DNA from: Terriglobia bacterium
GTDB taxonomy: Bacteria; Acidobacteriota; Terriglobia; 20CM-2-55-15
Reading direction: 5' to 3'
Length of the DNA: 64,000 bases
Assembly (NCBI GenBank): GCA_963664115.2
Contig: CAXWPJ010000009.1
Span: 1,056,001-1,120,000, forward strand
In this document: positions 5,646 through 23,342 of the stretch, one piece after another
Numbering within the stretch: position 1 is the stretch's first letter
Layout of the letters: each line of letters opens with the position of its first letter
The notes under the pieces: model-generated
Seen by the model: the letters and a program-made list of their open reading frames with translations, nothing else
The model's database searches: none
What the model was told of the DNA's origin: nothing
Made by a program: the position numbers and the translations under genes

Positions 5646-5752
5646 TTGTATCTGATTGCAGTAGTGTAAATCGGTTGCTCAATGATTCGTTTTGAGGCTC
5701 TTTTATTGGGTAGATCAAGGCCCCGTTAAGTGGGCCTGTGGAGGAAACGATT

Positions 5753-8700
5753 ATGAAGGTTGCGATGAGTGGAATGAAATGTCTGTTTGGGATAATTCTG
5801 ATCCTGGGGCTTGGCGGCGCTACAGCCTGGGCTCAGACGACCGGAGAGATCAGTGGTACGGTGACGGACACAAGCGGAGCTCTGCTACCGGGTGTCGAGG
5901 TGAGCGTGACCCAAACCGATACGGGTGCTACGCGAAACGCCGTGTCGAACGAGGTCGGAGGGTATGTGTTTACGAACCTGCCGTTGGGCCCGTATGAGCT
6001 GGAAGGGGCCTTGCCTGGATTCCAGACCTATGTGCAGACCGGCATTCTGTTACAGGTTGGCAGCGCGCCACGGATCAATGTCGTAATGGAGGTGGGTCAG
6101 GTCACCCAAACCATAGAGGTCCAGGCCAATAGGGTGATGGTAGAAACCCGGACATTGGGTGTGGCTTCCATCATGGAAAATGAACGCATTCTGGAACTGC
6201 CGCTGAACGGACGCCAGGTCGAGTCCCTGATCACGCTGGCCGGCGGCGCGGTTTCCGACGGCGGCCGCAGCAACCGGGCCCTGGGCGGAGAAGAGATTTC
6301 CGTGGCCGGCAGCTCGGTATACGCGGTGGACTATACCCTCGACGGCGCGAATCACATGAACTACACCAGTTCGGCGGGTCATGCCATGCCGTTTCCCGAC
6401 GCGCTGGAAGAGTTCAATGTGAGGACAAGCGGCCTGAGTGCTGAGAACGCACGGGCAGTCACGGTCGGAGCGGTGACCAAATCGGGTACCAACCAGTTCC
6501 ATGGCAGCGCGTTCGAATTCGTGCGCAACGACGCATTGAACGCGAGGGAATATTTCTCGCCGACGAACAGTACGCTCAAGCGCAACCAGTTCGGCGGCAC
6601 GTTCGGCGGGCCGATCATAGGGGACAAGCTGTTCTTCTTTGCCGCCGTCCAGTTCACCACCCTGCGTTCGGACCCGGCAAACGAGGTGGACATTCTGCCC
6701 ACTGAGGAAATGAAGCTGGGCGACTTCAGGAACTTCGGTTCAGAAGACTGCGAGGATCGAAATCTGAGAGACATAACGAATTGGGGCGGGCCGGACATAG
6801 ATTTCGACTTCAATGGCAACAACACGGTGGACCCGGCTCTGTTCAGCCCGGCTGCGATGAGTATCATCAACACGCTGCCCAGGCCGCAAGATCAGAAATG
6901 CGGCGAGTTCACCTACGGCATTTTGGAAGTCGATAACGCCTCCCAGTACGTGGGCCGGGTCGACTATACGGTCAGCGACCGTCACTCGGTGTTCGGACGC
7001 TACAACACATTCGGCAACCGCGCGCCGAGCCCGTTTTTAGCGGACCAGTCAAACATCCTGCTCGCGGACGTCCGCACGCTCGACAATCTGGGCCAGTACC
7101 TGGCGTTGGGCGATACCTATCTGTTTGGCGACAGCACGGTCAATTCATTCCGTTTCACCTACAACCGGGTGAAGGTCGGCCGTGACGGCACGACGTTCTA
7201 TTCCCCGTGTGACCATGGCGTCAATATGTACTGCGGGTACGTGCCGAAAACTTCGAACATTTCGGTCCGGGGCGGATTCGAGTTGAGCCAGACGTCGGCG
7301 CCGCTCGATTTTCTGTTCTCGCACGCCTTCGACGTCAACAACGATCTGAGCTTCATCATGGGAGACCACCAGATCACGGTCGGTGGAGGCATTAACCGCA
7401 CCTTACACCAGGCCAAGACCAGTTCGCGAGCCGTCGGCGACTTCGACTTTCGTACCGGAGGTTCCCGCGAAGCCGTGGCCAACTTCATGGTCGGATTCGT
7501 GGACCGGTTTATCCAGGGCGCGTTGAGCACCCACAACCCGATGCGATGGTTCCCCAGGGTGTATGCGACCGACACCTGGAGAGTGACGCCGACGCTCACC
7601 TTGAACTACGGGCTACGGTGGGATCCCCAGATGCCCGAGCACCGGTTGAACGACTCCGGTTTCAGTTGGACTCGGGAGAGATTCGACGCAGGCTTCCAAA
7701 GCAGTGTGTTCAACAACTCCGCTCCGGGTTTCTTCTACTTTGGCGATTCCGGGTTCCCCGACAACTCAGGGGGCATCGAGCCGATATGGAATCAGTTCGC
7801 ACCCCGAATCGGTTTGGCGTGGGATATGTTCGGCGACGGCAGCACTTCGCTTCGGACGTCCTACAGCTACAACTATGAAGTCGTACCCATGGAATGGGCC
7901 AACGAGATGGGCAACGCGCCGCCGTTCGGCAACCGTGTCGAGGTCAACCAGGTGCTTTTCGACGATCCCTGGAGGGGCACCTTCAATCCCCATCCCTTCG
8001 ATCTGGATGCAAACGTACCTTTCGGGAGCGGCGGAAATTACCCCATCCTGCCGACGGACTTTTCCCAACCCGATACCTCGTCGTGGAACCTGAGCATCCA
8101 GCGACAGCTTCCGGGCAACACGCTCGTGTCGGCGACCTATGTGGGTAACATCACAAACCACTTCATGGGCGTGCGGCAGATCAACCCGGCAGTCTTTTTC
8201 CCGGGTGAGACCGATGCGAACGGCAACTGCTCTGCCCAAGGCTTTACGATCAAAGCCGATTCCCGGGGCCGTTCAGGCCGCACCTGCTCGGTGTTCGGGA
8301 ACACGCAACAGCGGCGCGTTTTGAACCTGTTGCGTCCTGGAACCGATACCGGACTCCAGGGTTCCCTGCTGCAACTGGGAGCGATGACGGATCGGAGCCC
8401 GGAGGGCACCCAGCGCTACGCCGGCCTGATCACGAGTGTCCAAACCCGCCCCTCGGAACGTCTCAACTTCAATGCGAACTACACCTGGGGCCACTGCATC
8501 GGCGACTACACGTCGGGCAGTCCGACGGCCGGCCCGAACACAGACCAGACCCAATTGAAACCTCTGGATCGGCGGTTTGATTGGGGCGACTGCAATCTGG
8601 ACCGGCGGCACATATTCAATTTGACATCGGTGTTGGGTACGCCCGATTTCGCGAATAACACGACTCGCATGCTGCTGGGCAACTGGAGGTTAGCAGTCAT

Positions 8701-9151
8701 CTACAGAGCGTCTTCGGGCGAGAAGTCGTCGATCTTTACCTCCGACGACGACCTATCATTGACCGGGACCGCGACAGGCCACCAGCGCGGCAATCAGATA
8801 CTCCCCAGCGTTTATCTGAACAAGAGCGCCGGTCCCAACGAACGGTACCTCGATCCGGACGCTGTCGCGGACCCGGCTGAAGGCGCGTTTGGGAATTTAG
8901 GACGCAACAGCGTGGTGGGGCCCCGGCAATGGGACTTCGATGTCGCCCTGTCGCGAGTCTTCAACGTCGGCGAAACCTCGAGGATTGAGTTTCGAGCCGA
9001 GGCGTATAACCTCACGAACAGCTTCCGGGCGACACCGGGCGACGTAGATTTCTTTACGATCGACGATAGGAACTTCGGCCGATTCAACGCTGCAAACGGG
9101 AGTGCCCGGTCTCCACGAATCCTGCAGGGTGCCTTGAAGTTCGTCTTCTAG
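5753..9151 (+). CDS. TonB-dependent receptor, Oar-like, with carboxypeptidase-regulatory-like N-terminal domain
   Basis: GGAGG RBS; signal peptide; ISGTVTDTSGALLPG, ELPLNGR, TKSGTNQFHGSAFEF, NQFGGTFGGPI and FAPRIGLAWD motifs; ends LKFVF. Confidence 0.92.
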   Translation: MKVAMSGMKCLFGIILILGLGGATAWAQTTGEISGTVTDTSGALLPGVEVSVTQTDTGATRNAVSNEVGGYVFTNLPLGPYELEGALPGFQTYVQTGILLQVGSAPRINVVMEVGQVTQTIEVQANRVMVETRTLGVASIMENERILELPLNGRQVESLITLAGGAVSDGGRSNRALGGEEISVAGSSVYAVDYTLDGANHMNYTSSAGHAMPFPDALEEFNVRTSGLSAENARAVTVGAVTKSGTNQFHGSAFEFVRNDALNAREYFSPTNSTLKRNQFGGTFGGPIIGDKLFFFAAVQFTTLRSDPANEVDILPTEEMKLGDFRNFGSEDCEDRNLRDITNWGGPDIDFDFNGNNTVDPALFSPAAMSIINTLPRPQDQKCGEFTYGILEVDNASQYVGRVDYTVSDRHSVFGRYNTFGNRAPSPFLADQSNILLADVRTLDNLGQYLALGDTYLFGDSTVNSFRFTYNRVKVGRDGTTFYSPCDHGVNMYCGYVPKTSNISVRGGFELSQTSAPLDFLFSHAFDVNNDLSFIMGDHQITVGGGINRTLHQAKTSSRAVGDFDFRTGGSREAVANFMVGFVDRFIQGALSTHNPMRWFPRVYATDTWRVTPTLTLNYGLRWDPQMPEHRLNDSGFSWTRERFDAGFQSSVFNNSAPGFFYFGDSGFPDNSGGIEPIWNQFAPRIGLAWDMFGDGSTSLRTSYSYNYEVVPMEWANEMGNAPPFGNRVEVNQVLFDDPWRGTFNPHPFDLDANVPFGSGGNYPILPTDFSQPDTSSWNLSIQRQLPGNTLVSATYVGNITNHFMGVRQINPAVFFPGETDANGNCSAQGFTIKADSRGRSGRTCSVFGNTQQRRVLNLLRPGTDTGLQGSLLQLGAMTDRSPEGTQRYAGLITSVQTRPSERLNFNANYTWGHCIGDYTSGSPTAGPNTDQTQLKPLDRRFDWGDCNLDRRHIFNLTSVLGTPDFANNTTRMLLGNWRLAVIYRASSGEKSSIFTSDDDLSLTGTATGHQRGNQILPSVYLNKSAGPNERYLDPDAVADPAEGAFGNLGRNSVVGPRQWDFDVALSRVFNVGETSRIEFRAEAYNLTNSFRATPGDVDFFTIDDRNFGRFNAANGSARSPRILQGALKFVF

Positions 9152-9178
9152 TCGGCGGTAGCTGCAATCGATCCCGAT

Positions 9179-9235
9179 AAAGGGACGGATTCCTCTCCTC
9201 ATCGTGCTGTTCGAGGAGGGGGCCGTCCCTTTTTG
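9179..9235 (+). terminator. Rho-independent terminator
   Basis: AAGGGACGG...CCGTCCCTT stem followed by a T-run, just after the receptor stop codon. Confidence 0.7.
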
Positions 9236-9390
9236 TGCCTGTGGGAGGCTGGGTCGCGTACGAGGGGATGGCCTGGGACTGTTCCCGGTGTTTAGAACTG
9301 GGACCGCATCCCGATTTCAAATAGGCAAGAGGCCTGCCCCACGATAACACCGCGCCCACCGGCTATTCCGGGAGCCGGGCGATCAGGTCG

Positions 9391-9522
9391 TTACGGCTTT
9401 ACGCAGCACACACACGAGCAGTGGCACCGGCTTGGATCGGCCTCGCACTTGCAGGAACAACCTTCCGGGCCACAGTCGCAATTTTCGCAGCACTTACATT
9501 GGCACTGATATTCGGTGGGCAT
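9391..9522 (-). CDS. Cys-rich metallothionein-like microprotein (43 aa, 14 Cys)
   Basis: MPTEYQCQCKCCENCDCGPEGCSCKCEADPSRCHCSCVCCVKP; AAGGAG RBS 7 nt upstream of the ATG. Confidence 0.75.
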   Translation of the reverse strand: MPTEYQCQCKCCENCDCGPEGCSCKCEADPSRCHCSCVCCVKP

Positions 9523-10057
9523 GTCAATTCTCCTTCTTCGCCGGTAATTATAATCTACTGACAGCAGCGCACGATCCTCAAGCAGCGCAACCGGTGGACA
9601 GTGGGTCTTTTCAAAATAGATCGCGATCATCTTCTGCAGCGCGGCGGGTCCGGGTGACAATCCGGCGACTGTAGCGTCGCTTAGTATGGGGCGGGCCGTC
9701 CTCGCGGGCCGAAGCTCGACCATTTCAAATCACCACCTTCTTTGAACCATCGATATGGCGATCTGAATTGCACTGTCGCTGGGGGATCCTCAACCTACCG
9801 ATACCCCTAGCTGCTCGCCGGATCCAGGATCCAGCCTAGTCGCCAAGCTCCACCCGTGTAATTCCATTGACCGTCCGGCCCGTATTTAACGAACCAAAGA
9901 ACGAAACCCGCCTGGAAAGAAGTTGTGGTGTTTAATTGGCTATTATAGTATGTGCGATAAGGCTCTCTGCCTGCCCTGTCTGCCCGATATGAATGTTGTC
10001 GCAGCTGATGCCTGAGGTGATTTCTGATCTGAGACCTGACTGTTTAAAGGAGACGGA

Positions 10058-12274
10058 ATGAGATTAATAAGGAAAAGAAAAGGCGCCCTGAGCATTGTGT
10101 CGCTCGCGGTGATCGCGATCGTGGGTGTCTGGGCTGGTGCCGTTGGTGAGGCGGCCCGAGAGCTGGCCCCGGAGACATCTCGATTGGTTGCCATCCATGA
10201 GATCTCTGATTTAGAGGCCTGCGCGTGGGACCAGCCTGGGGCTGGCTATTCCGATCTGGGGCCGTCCTTGCAGCCCGTAAATCTCTTGGCCGCGCTGGGG
10301 CCGCGATCTGCCTTACCTCTGATGGGATCGGTCGCACAAACGCCGGCGGAAATGCAGCGGGGACGCAACAGAGAGCCGTTCGAGGCACAGAGGAACGGGA
10401 CTGCAACGCGTGTGCGCAGGATCGCGGATACCTATCCGACGTACACCGCCGTGGGTATTAATCTCCAGACCAATGAAGTCATCCTTCAGGATAACAATTT
10501 GTGGTCGACCCGAATCTTCAACCGCTTGGACAACACCCCGCCGGACGCCGATTTAACCGAAGCAAAGAAGGTTATTCAAGGCGAACAGACCCATATCCAG
10601 TTCAACAACGGCATCTACATCGATCCGGGGAATGGGGACATCTATTCGGTCGAATCGGACACGGGCGACAGGATGGTTGTGTTTGCTCACGACGCGAGAG
10701 GCAATGCCGCACCCAAGCGCATTCTGAACACGCCGCATCGTGTGTATAGCATTGCCGTCGACGAAGAGCGGGAAGAGCTGTACGTGACGGTGGAGTACCC
10801 GCCCGAGGTGGTTGTGTATCGCAAGGACGCCTCCGGTGACGAGCAGCCGCTTCGCCGAATCGTGGGTCAACGCACAAAGCTTGAGGGTCCCCACGGTATC
10901 GCCGTCGATGTCGAGAACCAACTCTTGTACGTCAATACCTGGGGCCAGGCGACCAATTTCAGGAATCCCGGTACGGGCCGGTTCAATCCACCGGCCATCA
11001 ACATCTATCCGCTTGACGCCAGCGGGGACACACCGCCGGTGCGAAGGATTCAAGGAGACCGGACCCAAATGAACTGGCCCGGGAATATGGCGTTGAACCC
11101 CGATAATGGGGATCTGTATGTGGCCAATGACGTGGAACACTCGATTCTCGTCTTCACGGGACTGGCTTACGTCCGGGGCAACGTACCGCCGACACGAGTC
11201 ATCAAGGGAGACCAGACGGCTCTGGTTTACCCGACGGGTGTGGCTATCGATAGGACGAATCAGGAGTTGTGGGTTTCCAATCTGGGCAACGCCTCGGCCA
11301 CGGCGTATCCGTTGATGGCTGAGGGAAACGTCGAGCCCCTGCGCACGATCCGCAGTGCGCCTCGGGAACATCAATCGTTGACTTTCGGCCGCACCGCGGC
11401 GGTGGCCTATGACCCCAACCGGCAAGAAATCCTGATACCGAACTGAGTGAACCACCCGCAGATTGCGGCTTTCGCCAGGCTGGCGGAAGAGAACGCGACG
11501 CCCACACGCAAATTGGAAGGTCAACTGACGCGGCTCGGTCGGACCATGCACGATCTGTCCTACGACGCGATTCACGACGAAATTGTTGTGAGCAGTCCTT
11601 TCGCCCAGGCGATCCTGACATTCCGGGGCGGGGCTGACGGAGAGGAAGCGCCCCTTCGCATCATCCAGGGACCGCGTACCCAGATCGTCAGTGAGCGCGG
11701 CCTCGATAAGGTCACCATTGATCCGATCAATGAGGAAATCTTCATCGCCACTAGCCTCGATCAGATTCTGGTATTTGAACGGGAAGCGAACGGGGACGTG
11801 GCTCCCATCCGGGTTCTGGGTGGGCCTGACACCCGATTCACCGGGCGCCCCACCGTCCGTGTCGATCCGGCCAATGATCTCTTGTTGGTTTCGGCTCCGG
11901 GGCGCGACGAGGGGCTGTTGATTTTTGATCGGACCGCGAGCGGCAATACCCCACCACGGGCCGTGATCCCGGGGCCTTCCGGCAATCAATTTGAGATCTA
12001 CAACGACTTGATCATTACCCACAGGGTGGACACTATTTACGCCTGGAGCATCCATGATACCGGCGAGGATGTTCTTCCGATCTGGAAAATCCCAGCGCCT
12101 CTGGGCGACCGAGCCGAGACAACCAACCAACGGGGCATAGCCCTGGATCCTCTGCACAAAGAGGTCATCATTGGAACGGCGGCCGGAAATCAGGTTATGG
12201 TATTTTCCGTTCCGGAATTGTTCGATGGACCTGGCCCTTCCTCGTTGAATACGGACACGGCCGAACTTCGCTGA
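10058..12274 (+). CDS. Secreted NHL-like beta-propeller protein, probable selenoprotein (in-frame UGA 11444-11446), 738 aa, paralog 2
   Basis: ORFs 10058-11446 and 11447-12274 are in frame; context EILIPN-TGA-VNHPQIAAFARLA; SECIS-like hairpin follows. Confidence 0.82.
11469..11489 (+). promoter_or_regulatory. Putative bacterial SECIS element (paralog 2)
   Basis: CTTTCGCCA-GGC-TGGCGGAAG at the same offset from the UGA as in paralog 1. Confidence 0.75.
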
Positions 12275-17148: not shown

Positions 17149-20100
17149 TCAGAATTTGTACTTCAACGCGAACTGCAAGATCCGAGGATCCGCGGCCGAG
17201 GTGATCTGGCCAAAATCATTATCGTCGATAATATTCTCCGGGTTGCCCAGATTGACGTTGTTCGGCAAGTTAAAAGCCTCGGCTCGGATCTCGAGCGTCT
17301 GGTTCTCCCCGATGGCGAACGATCGAGTCAGTCCGACGTCGAGCGTAAAGATTCCCGGACCCCGGATGCTGTTGCGGCCAAGGTTCCCGTAGGTGCCACG
17401 CGCAGGTGTGGCGAAGGCGGCCGGGTTCAGCCACTGGTCGGCACTCTTGTTGGCCATGAAAACGTTGTCCATCAGTTGGTGCGCCCTCTGGTCGTCCTCA
17501 TCCGTATTCGCTCGGTCGCAATCGCAACCGACATCGAAAAAGTCGCCGGACAGGACCTTGAGAATGCCCGAGGCCCGCCAGCCGCCGGCCAGCACCCTCA
17601 GTGTGGAATTGGCGAACTGCGGCGTCTCGTACACCGTCGACATGTTGAACGCGTGCCGCCGGTCCAGAATGTTGTTGCCGCGGTTAGCCGTGCGCCGGCT
17701 GAGGTGCGGGCGCCCCGAACTGGTGGAATTGAAGCTGGTCTGATCGCCGATGCTGTGGGACCAGGTGTAGTTCATCCGGAGATTCATGCCCGCACTCTGC
17801 CGCTCGAGCGAGAGCCACATCGCGTTGTAGCTGCCCGTGCCCCCGTCGTCGAACTTATTGAGGGCGGCGAGCCCGGACTCTGGATTGGCGCGGGTCAGCT
17901 CCCGCACGCCGTCGATCTCCGGATTGGCCTCCCGGATGCCCAACAGGTGGATCGAGGTATTGCCGATGTAGTTCGCCGTCGCCATCCACTCGCGACCGAT
18001 CTGGCGCTGAAGACTGAGGTTCCATTGGTGAACGTAGGGCGACTTATAGTTCTCATCGAGGGTCATGAACAGCGCGTTTCGAGGGAAAACTAAGTCCGGG
18101 GTCGCAATGACAGGTATAGGGTTGCCTCCCGGATTCCTGATCCACGGGTCATCCAGTCCGCCGATGTACCGGTTCCACGTAATACGCGGGGTGAACGGCG
18201 TGAGGTTCCGCAGCCCGTTGAACTGGTATGTGTGCGGGTAGTCGTAGAAGACCCCATAGGCGGCGCGGATGCTCGTGCGGCCGTCGCCTGACACGTCCCA
18301 CGCCATGCCCACGCGGGGCGCAAAATGGCCCCACAGGTTGTTGCTGATCTGGGCATTGTCCGGCATTCCCTCATCGCCCGGGCCCGGTGGGCGGTCGCCG
18401 CCAGAGTACAGGTACCCCACCGGAGCGTTCACAAACACGGTGCTCTGGCGACCCTGGTCAAACCAGTCCCTCCGGAACCGCCCGGTGCGCTTGTCATTCC
18501 GCACCTGCGGCGTGAAGGGTTCCCAGCGGAGGCCGAGATTGAGCGTGAACTGATTATTCACCCTCCAGATGTCCTGCGCGTACAGCGATTGAAAGTCCTG
18601 CCGGGTATACCAGGTCGCGAGATCTTCCTGCCGGAAGCGGTCCACGTAACCGATCATGAAATCGGCCATCGACAGCCCGGTGCCCCGGGTTCGGAAGCGC
18701 CAATTGCCGGGGGAGGAGCTGCTGGACGAAATATACATGAGCTGGCGCATGTAAGATCCTCCGAACGCGAACTGGTGGTCGCCCTTCACCCAACCAATGT
18801 CGTTGGAGACTTCATAGCCGGTCGAGTTCGTGTACGACGGAGTGGCCTGCTGTGAGAACGTGTCGAACGCGCCTCGGACACTCGCCTCGGACATCGATGA
18901 TCATCATCTTCGGGTAAGGAGCCGCCGGAGAGGTGAAATCCTGGACCCCCACCTCCCCGGGCGTGAAAACGTCGAAGAACGATTTGGTGTTGGCTGTTCG
19001 AATCAGGGTCACCCGAAAAGAATTGATCAGATTGTTGTTGATCGACCACGTATCGCCGAACACGCCCGACTGGTATTTCCGGGCCCAATTCGGTTCATCC
19101 ACAGCTACGGGAATCGTCCCGTTGTAGTCGCTCGGACTCGTCAGCCTGTGAATCGAATAACGGAAAAACATCGAGTGGCTGTACTCACCTGAAAAGTCCG
19201 CGCGCGTTACCCACTGGTGCTCGTCTTCGTTTTCTCTTTCACTGAATTCGATTCTGCCGCACGGATCGGTTGTCTGCGGGAGCCGGGCGGCGATGTTTTT
19301 CGCCACCGGAGAGAGCAGCGCCGGGTCGATCTGGTTGTCAACGAAAGGGAAATCAGCCCTGATGTCTCTCCTGCCTCTCAAGGTGACCCCACGTCCCGCT
19401 CCCCGGCATTCGTCACCTGCGATCCGCCTGAAGTCACCGTTGAGCACCTCCGCGGTCGGAACGAAAGCGAAAGTGGTCGACGGCGCGGAACGCTTCATGG
19501 TCCGCTGATAGCCGGTGAAAAAGAACAGCCGGTCCCCGACAATCGGCCCCCCGAAGGTGCCGCCAAACTGGTTGCGCTTCAGCGAGTCGCGTTCGTTTGC
19601 GAACGTATTGCGGGCGTTGAATGCTTCGTTGCGCACGAATTCAAACGCGCTACCGTGAAACTGGTTTGTTCCCGACTTCGTCACTACGCTCACCAAGCCC
19701 GCCGAATGCTGGCCGTGCCGCGCGGGAATGGCACTGGTTTCGACTTTGAACTCCTGGAGTGCATCCGGAAACGGCAACGGCATGTTGAGGTTGTTGAACG
19801 GATCGTTGTGCGTTCCACCGTCCATCCGGTACGACAGGCCGTTATCCTGCCCACCACCGACCGAAACGGCGATGGTCGGATAGTTCCGGCTCGTGCCGCG
19901 GGTGGGTGAGGTGATAGCGGCCCCCGAAAGCGCGATCAGTTCGGTCGCATTACGTCCGTTGAGGGGAAGTTCCAGGACGCGCGCGTTGTCTAAGATCTGG
20001 CCAATGCCGGTGTTCCGGGTCTCCACCATTAGAGCGTCGGCCTGGACCTCGATGGTCTGGGCGAACTGTCCGACCTCCAGGACGACATTCGATGACAGGA

Positions 20101-20438
20101 CTGGCGCCCACCTGCAGCACGATTCCGGTTTGGAGAAAGGTACTGAAACCTGGAAGTGAAGCTTCCAGCGTATAGGGTCCCAGCGCGAGGTTCGGCAGGA
20201 TAAAGGATCCTGTTTCGTTCGAGACCGCCGTCCGAACCGTGCCCCTGTCAATGTTGGTTGTGGTGACTTCCACTCCGGGCAGCAAGGCCCCGGTCGGATC
20301 CGTAATCGTTCCGTTGATCTGGGCGGTCTCCTGGGCCCATGCTCCTGTCGACGTCAGTAGGACGATGAGAAGCCCTGCCAGCAGTCGGCACGCAACGATC
20401 CTACCGCCCCGTTCTTCGACTTTCTTAGCATTTTTCAT
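17149..20438 (-). pseudogene. Oar-like TonB-dependent receptor disrupted by two frameshifts
   Basis: Three overlapping ORFs join into a paralog of 5753-9151. There is an extra base at ~20090 (GTC ATC G AAT GTC) and a 13-nt duplication-insertion at 18870-18893. Confidence 0.8.
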
Positions 20439-21020: not shown

Positions 21021-23342
21021 ATGCACTTAACGAAAAGCAAATCTGTAATCGCAATTTTGGCGGTCACGCTGATCGGGATTGCGGGTGTCTGGGCCGGGCT
21101 TGTTCCGGAGTCGGCACCGGGAGTTGTTCCGGAGGCGACCTCGGGAACCGCCGAGAGCGTCGCTCGATTGGTTTCCGTCCAGGAATTCCCCCAACTCGAC
21201 GCCTGCGCATGGGATACCCCTGCCAGCTTCAGTTCGGGTCCGGCGCCATCGTTGAGTTCGGAAAATCTGCTCGGCGCCTTGGAGCAACGGGGGGGCGCTT
21301 CGTTTCTGACGGCTTCCCTGAGGCAACAAGCTCCGGTAATGCAGCAAGGGGGACGCGGGGGACCTGCAGAATTCGATTCCGACAGGCAGGGGACCTCGAC
21401 CCATCTGCGCACGCTGGCGGATACCTATCCCACCTTTACCGCTGTCGGCGTCAATACCAACACCAATGAAGTGATCCTGCAGGACAACAATCTATGGTCC
21501 GCCTACATCTTCAACCGGCTGGATAACACACCGCCGCGCGCGCGATTCAGCGAGCCGAAGCGGATCATCCAGGGGCCTGAGACCGAGATGCAGTTCAACA
21601 ACGGCCTCTACATCGATCCGGTGAACGGGGACATGTATTCGGTCGAATCGGACACGGGCGACAAGATGGTGGTGTTTGCCCAGGACGCCGGGGGTAACGT
21701 CGCGCCCAAGCGCATCCTGAACACACCCCATCGAGTGTACAGCGTTGCCGTCGACGAAGTGAGGGAGGAGCTCTACATCACCGTGGAGTACCCGCCCGAG
21801 GTGGTCGTGTACAACAAGAATGCCGAGGGGGATGAACTGCCGCTGCGGCGCATCGTCGGGGACAACACCCAGCTGGAAACACCCCACGGGATCGCCGTCG
21901 ACTCGAATCTCGGGCTCTTGTACGTGAACAACTGGGGCCATACCACGGATTTTGGAGATTCACGAGGTGGGACGACGGGTTACGAAGATAATGGCAGGAA
22001 TATTTCTCCTGTTGGCGATCCCTCTACGGGCCGGTTCAATCCGACTTCGATCACGATCTATTCGATCGAGGCGAACGGGGACGTGGCACCGATACGTGTG
22101 ATTGAAGGGGACCGGACGCAGTTGAATTGGCCTGGAAACATGACCGTGAACCAGGAGACCGGGGACCTGTATGTTGCCAATGACATGGATCACTCGATCC
22201 TGGTTTTCACAGGGTTGGACACCGCCGACGGCAACGTGGCGCCGACGCGGGTCATCAAGGGTGATCAGACCAAGCTGGTCCACCCGACCGGAGTGGCTGT
22301 GGACACCGTGAACCAGGAGTTGTGGGTGTCCAACCTGGGTAACGCATCGGGGGTGGCGTTTCCGCTCGAGGCCGATGGGAACGTGGCGCCCTTGCGGGTC
22401 GTACGTGCGGCGCCGGAGGAACACCAGTCGTTGATTTTCGGTCGGACCGCGGCGGTGACGTATGACCCCAACCGGGAAGAAATCCTGGTACCGAACTGAG
22501 TGAACCATCCGCAGGTTGCGGCCTTCGCCAGGTTGGCGGAGGAGAACGCGGTTCCGACACGTGTGATTGAAGGTGTGGCTTCACGGCTCGGCCGGACAAT
22601 GCATGATGTGATGTTCGATGCGATTCACGATGAACTCGTCGTGACGAGTCCATTCGCCCAGGCGATTTTGACATTCCGGGGCGATGCGGACGGCGAAGAA
22701 GCCCCCCTGCGCATCATCCAGGGTCCAAATACTCAGATCGTGAGCGAACGGGGTTTGGATAAAGTCACCATCGACCCGGTCAACAACGAGATCCTGATCG
22801 CGACCAACCACGGAGACGATCGAGACCCACTCGGAGCCATTCTGGTATTTCCGCGGGAAGCGGACGGCGATGTCGCTCCGATCCGGGTTCTAAGCGGGCC
22901 CGCCACCCAGTTCGGGGGCGGCCGTCCCTCGATGCGGGTCGACAACAAGAACGACCTGTTGCTCGTCGCTGAGAGTGGCGGTATTTTGATCTTTGATAGA
23001 ACCGCGAGCGGGAATACGCCGCCGGTTGGATGGATTCCAGGACCCAGCGGCAACCAGTTCGACGTCTACAACAATCTGATCATCACGCTGAGGGGCGACT
23101 ACCTCTACGCCTGGGACATCCACACCAGGGGCGAGGGCATCCGTCCGGTCTGGAAGATTTCAACTCCGCTGGGAGCGCGAGCCGCCCAGACGGGACTTGT
23201 TCTGGATCCTGTTCACGAGGAGGTCATCGTCGCGACCGGAGCCGGAAACCAGATTCTGGTGTTTCACGTTCCCGAAATATTCGCGGAACGCAGTGAGGTG
23301 CCACGCGCCTCGACACCATTCCGCTTCTCAGCTGAGGAGTAG
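21021..23342 (+). CDS. Secreted NHL-like beta-propeller protein, probable selenoprotein (in-frame UGA 22497-22499), 773 aa, paralog 3
   Basis: ORFs 21021-22499 and 22500-23342 are in frame; context EILVPN-TGA-VNHPQVAAFARLA; close paralog of copy 2. Confidence 0.82.
22522..22542 (+). promoter_or_regulatory. Putative bacterial SECIS element (paralog 3)
   Basis: CCTTCGCCA-GGT-TGGCGGAGG at the same offset from the UGA. Confidence 0.75.

Follow-up and report, generated by a model that had tools for sequence, protein, structure and literature searches.

A conserved family of 14-cysteine small proteins in Terriglobia with a metallothionein-like make-up

The characterised types of bacterial metallothioneins (MTs) are described as few, mainly SmtA/BmtA and MymT (PMC7387436, PMC13578184). 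BmtA proteins are reported to be 53-56 aa long, with nine conserved Cys, conserved Tyr and His residues and the pattern K-C-A-C-x2-C-L-C (PMC10537150), and to contain about 16% Cys (PMC13578184). In metazoan MTs, the mean contents are given as 31.65% Cys and 0.15% His (PMC11705764). The vertebrate clusters M3Cys9 and M4Cys11 hold their metal at 2.75-3 Cys per ion, and CxC and CC arrangements in proteins of fewer than 100 aa are presented as a textbook MT hallmark (PMC11645667). The DeepMetagenome EnvMT set, which was mined by composition, consists of short proteins (mean 40.5 aa), many of which gave Cu/Cd tolerance in E. coli. These proteins average 10.6% Cys and 13.3% His, and prokaryotic MTs are said to prefer His (PMC11705764).

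Here we describe a Cys-rich 43-aa ORF from a Terriglobia bacterium, located in a 64,000-nucleotide stretch of contig CAXWPJ010000009.1 (hereafter the window). Read on the minus strand from 9522 to 9391, the ORF translates to MPTEYQCQCKCCENCDCGPEGCSCKCEADPSRCHCSCVCCVKP, followed by TAA, while the plus strand of 9391-9522 gives a frame unrelated to this peptide. The peptide contains 14 Cys (32.6%), in CxC, CC and CxxC arrangements, and one His. The initial annotation of the window had given the same length and counts together with an AAGGAG ribosome-binding site, in agreement with our translation and the upstream sequence. The features of the locus are as follows.

5738-9151, plus strand: TonB-dependent receptor gene (PF25183/PF13620), convergent with the 43-aa ORF
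9356..9382, minus strand: GC-rich hairpin directly 3′ of the stop codon (RNAfold, downstream 90 nt)
9391..9522, minus strand: 14-Cys metallothionein-like CDS, ATG at 9522 and TAA at 9391-9393 (translation, 17 homologues, pN/pS 0.22)
9530..9535, minus strand: Shine-Dalgarno sequence AAGGAG, 7 nt before the ATG
9547..9552, minus strand: TATAAT, predicted -10 box of putative function, 24 nt before the ATG
10058-12274, plus strand: NHL beta-propeller gene pair, divergent from the 43-aa ORF

The ORF lister gives the peptide merely as the tail of a 110-aa ORF (9391-9723), where the initial annotation had rightly found it buried. That annotation had missed a second genomic copy and the perfect TATAAT 24 nt 5′ of the ATG. 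The latter has no -35 consensus and was therefore also missed by a strict promoter scan. A perfect TATAAT lies 24-28 nt 5′ of the ATG in five of 16 loci (four of them from the window's genus), and four more loci have five of the six letters; the genome-wide chance of TATAAT is about 0.001 per 25-nt window. The hairpin, possibly a transcript end or a stabiliser, lacks a T-run, and the terminator scan called none. Congener similarity reaches through this stretch. Between the TonB gene and the 43-aa ORF, a long inverted repeat rich in GC, with runs of A and T on its flanks (9170-9235), looks like a bidirectional terminator, although it was not called by the strict scan.

The Cys density of the ORF is not due to chance. 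When all stop-to-stop segments of at least 25 aa were scanned in six frames of the whole 4.89-Mb genome (112,915 segments), 14 Cys within 43 residues were found in two segments alone, the 43-aa ORF and its paralog, which tied. The next most Cys-dense segments had 12 and 11 Cys. The paralog, on contig C5, is 86% identical to the 43-aa ORF, and the DNA similarity spans 158 bp, covering the coding region and some 30 nt 5′ of it, with the -10 box among them. The third most Cys-dense segment of the genome is an open stretch of 73 codons whose 12 Cys lie in repeated units (G000:C5:92862, plus strand). The genome also carries dozens of identical copies of an insertion sequence with a DDE transposase (PF13701), for example one adjoining the paralog (L011:3651-7090). 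An alternative frame of this element yields a recurring 9-Cys segment, which is background and not a gene family.

Conserved homologues, which the initial annotation had proposed to look for, were indeed found. Searches of 61 related genomes, a class-wide search, collection scans and phmmer over 1.84 billion representatives (three matches, two of them real) yielded 17 distinct homologous proteins with 44-86% identity to the query. Every one of them is 41-43 aa long and contains 14 Cys (32.6-34.1%) in a single spacing pattern, C-x-C-x-C-C-x2-C-x(1-2)-C-x(3-4)-C-x-C-x-C-x6-C-x-C-x-C-x-C-C. Thirteen Cys columns are invariant, and the 14th is moved by one place in one member. Among the non-Cys columns, G21, S23 and G28 are kept in at least 90% of members. 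Each of the 17 members has 0-1 aromatic residues and 0-2 Ile/Leu/Val, and Lys outnumbers Arg by 87 to 10 across the family. The mass of the 15 members computed is 4.35-4.69 kDa, and the natural variants include acidic ones with a pI of about 5 and basic ones with a pI of about 8.5. His, which the initial annotation had counted among the features of the protein, is not conserved. It is absent from eight of the 17 members and therefore cannot be a required ligand.

Selection on this family was evident at the codon level. In the 15 colinear DNA sequences, from which L022 (indels) and P0003 (no DNA) were omitted, the pooled pN/pS was 0.22. The dN/dS ratio was below 1 in all 63 correctable pairs of 105, with a median of 0.12, the sequences being related and the pairs not independent. 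Variable columns numbered 21, 18 and 37 of 40 at codon positions 1, 2 and 3, respectively. Both TGC and TGT are used in 12 of the 14 Cys columns, and therefore the Cys residue, rather than the DNA, is conserved. The frame is free of stops in all 15 sequences; in four of the five other frames, some members have stops. The ATG has the same position in every homologue, and a GGAG/GAGGA-type site was present within 20 nt 5′ of it in all 16 loci examined. The open frame 5′ of the ATG is anywhere between 1 and 69 codons long, with nine codons or fewer in eight of 16 loci; therefore, the 110-aa ORF is an accident. Public data include one homologue, P0003, as a called protein of 42 aa. Judged from these sequence comparisons, 9391..9522 is a real gene under purifying selection that starts at the ATG at 9522.

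The gene was found in eight of 401 class genomes after removal of four chance matches, and among genome matches it is confined to two orders of Terriglobia, being carried by five of 35 genomes in the window's order and three of 14 in the second. Weak class-level matches in G071, G014, G391 and G027 (E 0.004-0.008) misfit the family pattern and were excluded from the counts; the most similar of the four, in G014, overlaps another long frame and gave no DNA-level alignment. A phylum-wide draw found the gene in none of 400 other genomes. Many of the surveyed genomes are incomplete, and therefore absence means that the gene was not found in those searched. When 185,579 species genomes were scanned with the pattern, only three loci were recovered and three known members went undetected; occurrence beyond Acidobacteriota is therefore poorly probed. 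The gene also occurs on nine metagenome contigs, and searches of viral contigs and plasmids gave no match. In the congener G002, the homologue is a pseudogene (L010:6273-8760; G002:C1 about 446270-448760) interrupted by an IS1-like element. This element has terminal inverted repeats, is flanked by an 8-bp target duplication and contains a 345-aa passenger ORF without a Pfam match. The 5′ end of the pseudogene appears to have been replaced by a second mobile element. Given its patchy occurrence in the order and its broken state in G002, the gene is dispensable.

The flanking annotation confirmed the position between a TonB receptor and a propeller, from which the initial annotation had derived a role in metal buffering. 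This derivation did not hold. The gene order of the genus is a divergent propeller pair, the 14-Cys gene, a DUF5916 gene and a second propeller pair, and this context was seen only within the genus. An intact TonB gene between the 14-Cys and DUF5916 genes is found in the window only, G004 having none and G001 and G002 having short fragments, so that the gene persists without an intact TonB gene in all three congeners with a copy. TonB-like genes are frequent here in any case (19 loci). A second TonB-like gene in the window (17149-20251, minus strand) appears as overlapping ORFs in different frames (17149-18894, 18812-20251 and 19950-20438), which suggests frameshifts or assembly errors. As for the propellers, each of the 13 full-length paralog pairs of the window genome (G000) is interrupted in frame by a stop codon at one shared position, after Asn and before Val/Leu (1980-1982, 11444-11446 and 22497-22499 in the window, and ten more places in G000). 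In two window copies that were checked, the stop reads TGA and the next codon is GTG, and a tRNA-Sec lies at C2:428554-428651 of the same genome. The pattern fits selenocysteine or readthrough, or a conserved stop-restart.

The paralog and all homologues outside the genus have different neighbours. These are an amidohydrolase and a transposase for the paralog, a nickel-insertion protein and Met-tRNA ligase in G015, tRNA-Ala and an M50 peptidase in G087, L019 and L020, an alanine racemase in L022, a metallo-beta-lactamase-fold gene and then a TonB gene in L023 and L026, a P-type ATPase matching Cation_ATPase_C and no heavy-metal domain in G048, an ECF sigma factor in G080, and a convergent Cys/Met PLP-enzyme gene in L027. 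The tail-to-tail arrangement with tRNA-Ala(GGC), followed by the M50 peptidase, recurs at L038:6020-6281, L019:3001-3370 and L020:3001-3339 and includes G087 of the second order; this is possibly an old insertion site. No metal sensor or heavy-metal efflux family was detected among 54 flanking proteins scanned, a selection of longer ORFs. A direct search for ArsR, CsoR, MerR and Fur within 10 kb of six copies in five genomes gave a hit for one copy, a MerR-family gene 7 kb away in G080. No PF01022 match (smtB/ArsR type) was found within 40 kb of the six copies, the contigs of G015 and G080 being short. An upstream operator search found no inverted repeat common to the loci. With differing neighbours and no adjacent metal regulator or shared operator, the 14-Cys gene therefore behaves as a self-contained unit.

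Database searches returned little beyond the family itself. The exact 43-aa sequence was absent from a 15-billion protein collection. A word-indexed protein search with the single 43-aa query gave no match, and the same type of search with alignments matched P0003 alone. P0005 proved to be a Cys-poor repeat ORF and was rejected as a homologue. Among longer proteins, one weak match was returned (E 8.7e-3, 47% cover) and fused forms were not seen, a negative of little weight. None of the 17 members matched Pfam or NCBIfam at E≤10, and PDB sequences gave no match with either the profile or the single protein. HMMER filters can suppress Cys-biased matches, and blank searches are therefore not proof of no relationship. 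At the 43-aa locus, neither PF02069, the control for which passed the cut-off in one of 14 genomes, nor PF02067, which had no positive control above the cut-off and for which Cys-biased matches may be suppressed, matched at E≤10. In the ESM Atlas, the nearest cluster was the PF02067 metallothionein at 0.85, followed by unnamed 45-52-aa clusters, with PF00131 at 0.76; all lie below the 0.9 line, recognition was low (1767), and the clusters count as leads only. The AlphaFold2 model, built on a shallow alignment, had almost no secondary structure (pLDDT 60.9, pTM 0.27), and Foldseek and VIA-align found no fold match with this low-confidence model, an uninformative result. A literature search, outside the scope of which most subscription papers lie, found no published description of the 14-Cys family, of a metallothionein in Terriglobia or of three family motifs. 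The family is, by profile and literature searches alike, uncatalogued in the libraries searched.

We regard a stand-alone, Cys-only cytoplasmic metallothionein as the probable identity of this family. From the initial proposal of a metallothionein-like protein we retain the hidden but real and conserved gene, the MT-like make-up and the unlikeness to SmtA, and drop the argument from the neighbourhood. The proteins have the sequence marks of metallothioneins: they are smaller than 100 aa, with abundant conserved Cys in CxC, CC and CxxC and few aromatic or hydrophobic residues. The 43-aa protein would fold around a thiol-bound cluster of metal ions and buffer Zn/Cd or Cu. Its gene would form a monocistronic unit driven by its own -10 box, with the strong ribosome site directing translation. 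The first Cys comes after just 5-6 residues, too few for a signal or leader peptide. The cytoplasm is a reducing compartment. A protein that has no export signal would stay there, with its Cys present as free thiolates rather than disulfides. The apo-protein would be largely unfolded and fold upon metal binding; the near absence of secondary structure in the AlphaFold2 model is as expected for an apo-MT, though the indication is weak. The Cys spacing, fixed across two orders down to 44% identity, suggests a defined cluster. At the M3Cys9/M4Cys11 ratios, 14 Cys could hold about five divalent ions, or more Cu(I). With no sensor or operator adjacent, the protein may serve as a buffer that is made constitutively or under stress or in stationary phase, in the manner of Pseudomonas MT, and not as a detoxifier induced by metal, as SmtA is. 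A bolder reading, to which we give less than even credence, is that the family represents an undescribed type, an independently evolved class of Cys-only bacterial MT with animal-like Cys density and 14 thiolates gathered around some five Zn/Cd ions as a single cluster, or around a larger Cu(I) core, and that the His-rich zinc-finger picture reflects annotation bias.

The same Cys residues could instead serve mainly as a thiol redox buffer or as a cysteine or sulfur store, metal binding being incidental. The lack of metal-related neighbours or regulators would agree with this, as would the report that the MT of Pseudomonas is not needed for metal resistance but is important for survival in stationary phase (PMC7387436). 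However, a bulk thiol store would need no fixed spacing of the kind seen across the two orders, and a redox role is also compatible with MT identity. We consider this role unlikely, to the same degree as that of a small Fe-S or zinc-finger-type protein acting with a specific partner as a cluster carrier or regulator. For the latter, the conservation of G21, S23 and G28 is higher than many MTs need, but 14 Cys are far above a 4-Cys finger or ferredoxin motif, a hydrophobic core and a conserved neighbour that could be the partner are both lacking, and the low-confidence model gave no fold match.

A precursor of a ribosomally synthesised peptide (RiPP), either a ranthipeptide/sactipeptide or an MNIO-modified peptide, with its maturase encoded elsewhere, is a still more improbable identity. 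The ORF is small and Cys-rich, SPASM-domain genes occur in three of five carrier genomes tested, and the G087 copy has a B12-radical-SAM gene at a distance of about 850 bp. Yet there is no leader, the Cys beginning at residue 6-7, and no conserved maturase or exporter is nearby; MNIO (PF05114) was found in none of six carrier genomes, the SPASM genes of G000, G001 and G004 are distant or on other contigs, and G087, a single contig of 100% completeness, has the gene and no SPASM match. It is hardly credible that the ORF is a cysteine-sensing leader peptide attenuating a downstream gene. One third of its codons are for Cys, a hairpin follows the stop, and a Cys/Met PLP-enzyme gene adjoins the L027 copy, but the downstream gene, including this one, is convergent in the window, G015, G087, L019, L020, L022 and L027, and cis-attenuation is therefore impossible there; the spacing is moreover conserved at the protein level. 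Just as hard to believe is that the locus is not a gene or that its product is the 110-aa ORF. The missing exact sequence in the 15-billion collection is countered by the low pN/pS, the open frame in every sequence, the conserved ribosome site and the public call of P0003, and the short upstream frames of half the loci speak against the longer product.

A metallothionein of this make-up would be a clean compositional counter-example to the His preference stated for prokaryotic MTs in PMC11705764. At 4.5 kDa, the protein is easy to synthesise and assay, and the pI variants of about 5 and 8.5 would allow a test of the determinants of metal preference. The single 14-Cys span may form an undescribed cluster. 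The chemistry is likely to be classical and the family is small and patchy; it does not amount to a new kind of system.

Among known MTs, the family resembles SmtA/BmtA (family 14, PF02069, including Pseudomonas PflQ2MT/PmtA) in being small, Cys-rich, cytoplasmic and, as described for that family in PMC3323870, often missed in annotation, and it resembles Pseudomonas MT in having no adjacent metal sensor (PMC7387436). BmtA has a GATA-type zinc finger, whereas the 14-Cys proteins are 41-43 aa long with 33% Cys and no conserved His. The pattern K-C-A-C-x2-C-L-C was found in none of the 17 members, and neither was its relaxed form CxCxxCxC. Together with the blank PF02069 search, this supports the initial statement that the protein is unlike SmtA. 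MymT, the mycobacterial Cu(I) MT, is likewise small (4.9 kDa), was originally unannotated and is unrelated to BmtA (PMC7558416, PMC10612145). M. avium MymT has 48 aa and seven Cys according to PMC13519478, half of 14; the comparison with MymT covers this Cys count and the blank Pfam and NCBIfam scans. The EnvMT proteins share the short length and the discovery by composition, but the 14-Cys family is Cys-rich and its His dispensable, and the three short family motifs were not found in four supplementary files of PMC11705764. The closest resemblance in composition and spacing is to eukaryotic single-domain MTs (Diptera family 5, PF02067; vertebrate alpha/beta, PF00131), which are also about 40 aa long with about 32% Cys, CxC and CC arrangements and Lys over Arg, although 14 Cys in one 34-residue span exceed the 9- or 11-Cys vertebrate domains. 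The eukaryote-like appearance noted initially stands for composition and spacing only. Searches of Pfam, PDB and PF02067 revealed no relationship to a eukaryotic MT family, and the likeness is best read as convergent composition. The 14-Cys family likely works like a metallothionein, but it falls outside BmtA and, as far as can be detected, outside the eukaryotic families.
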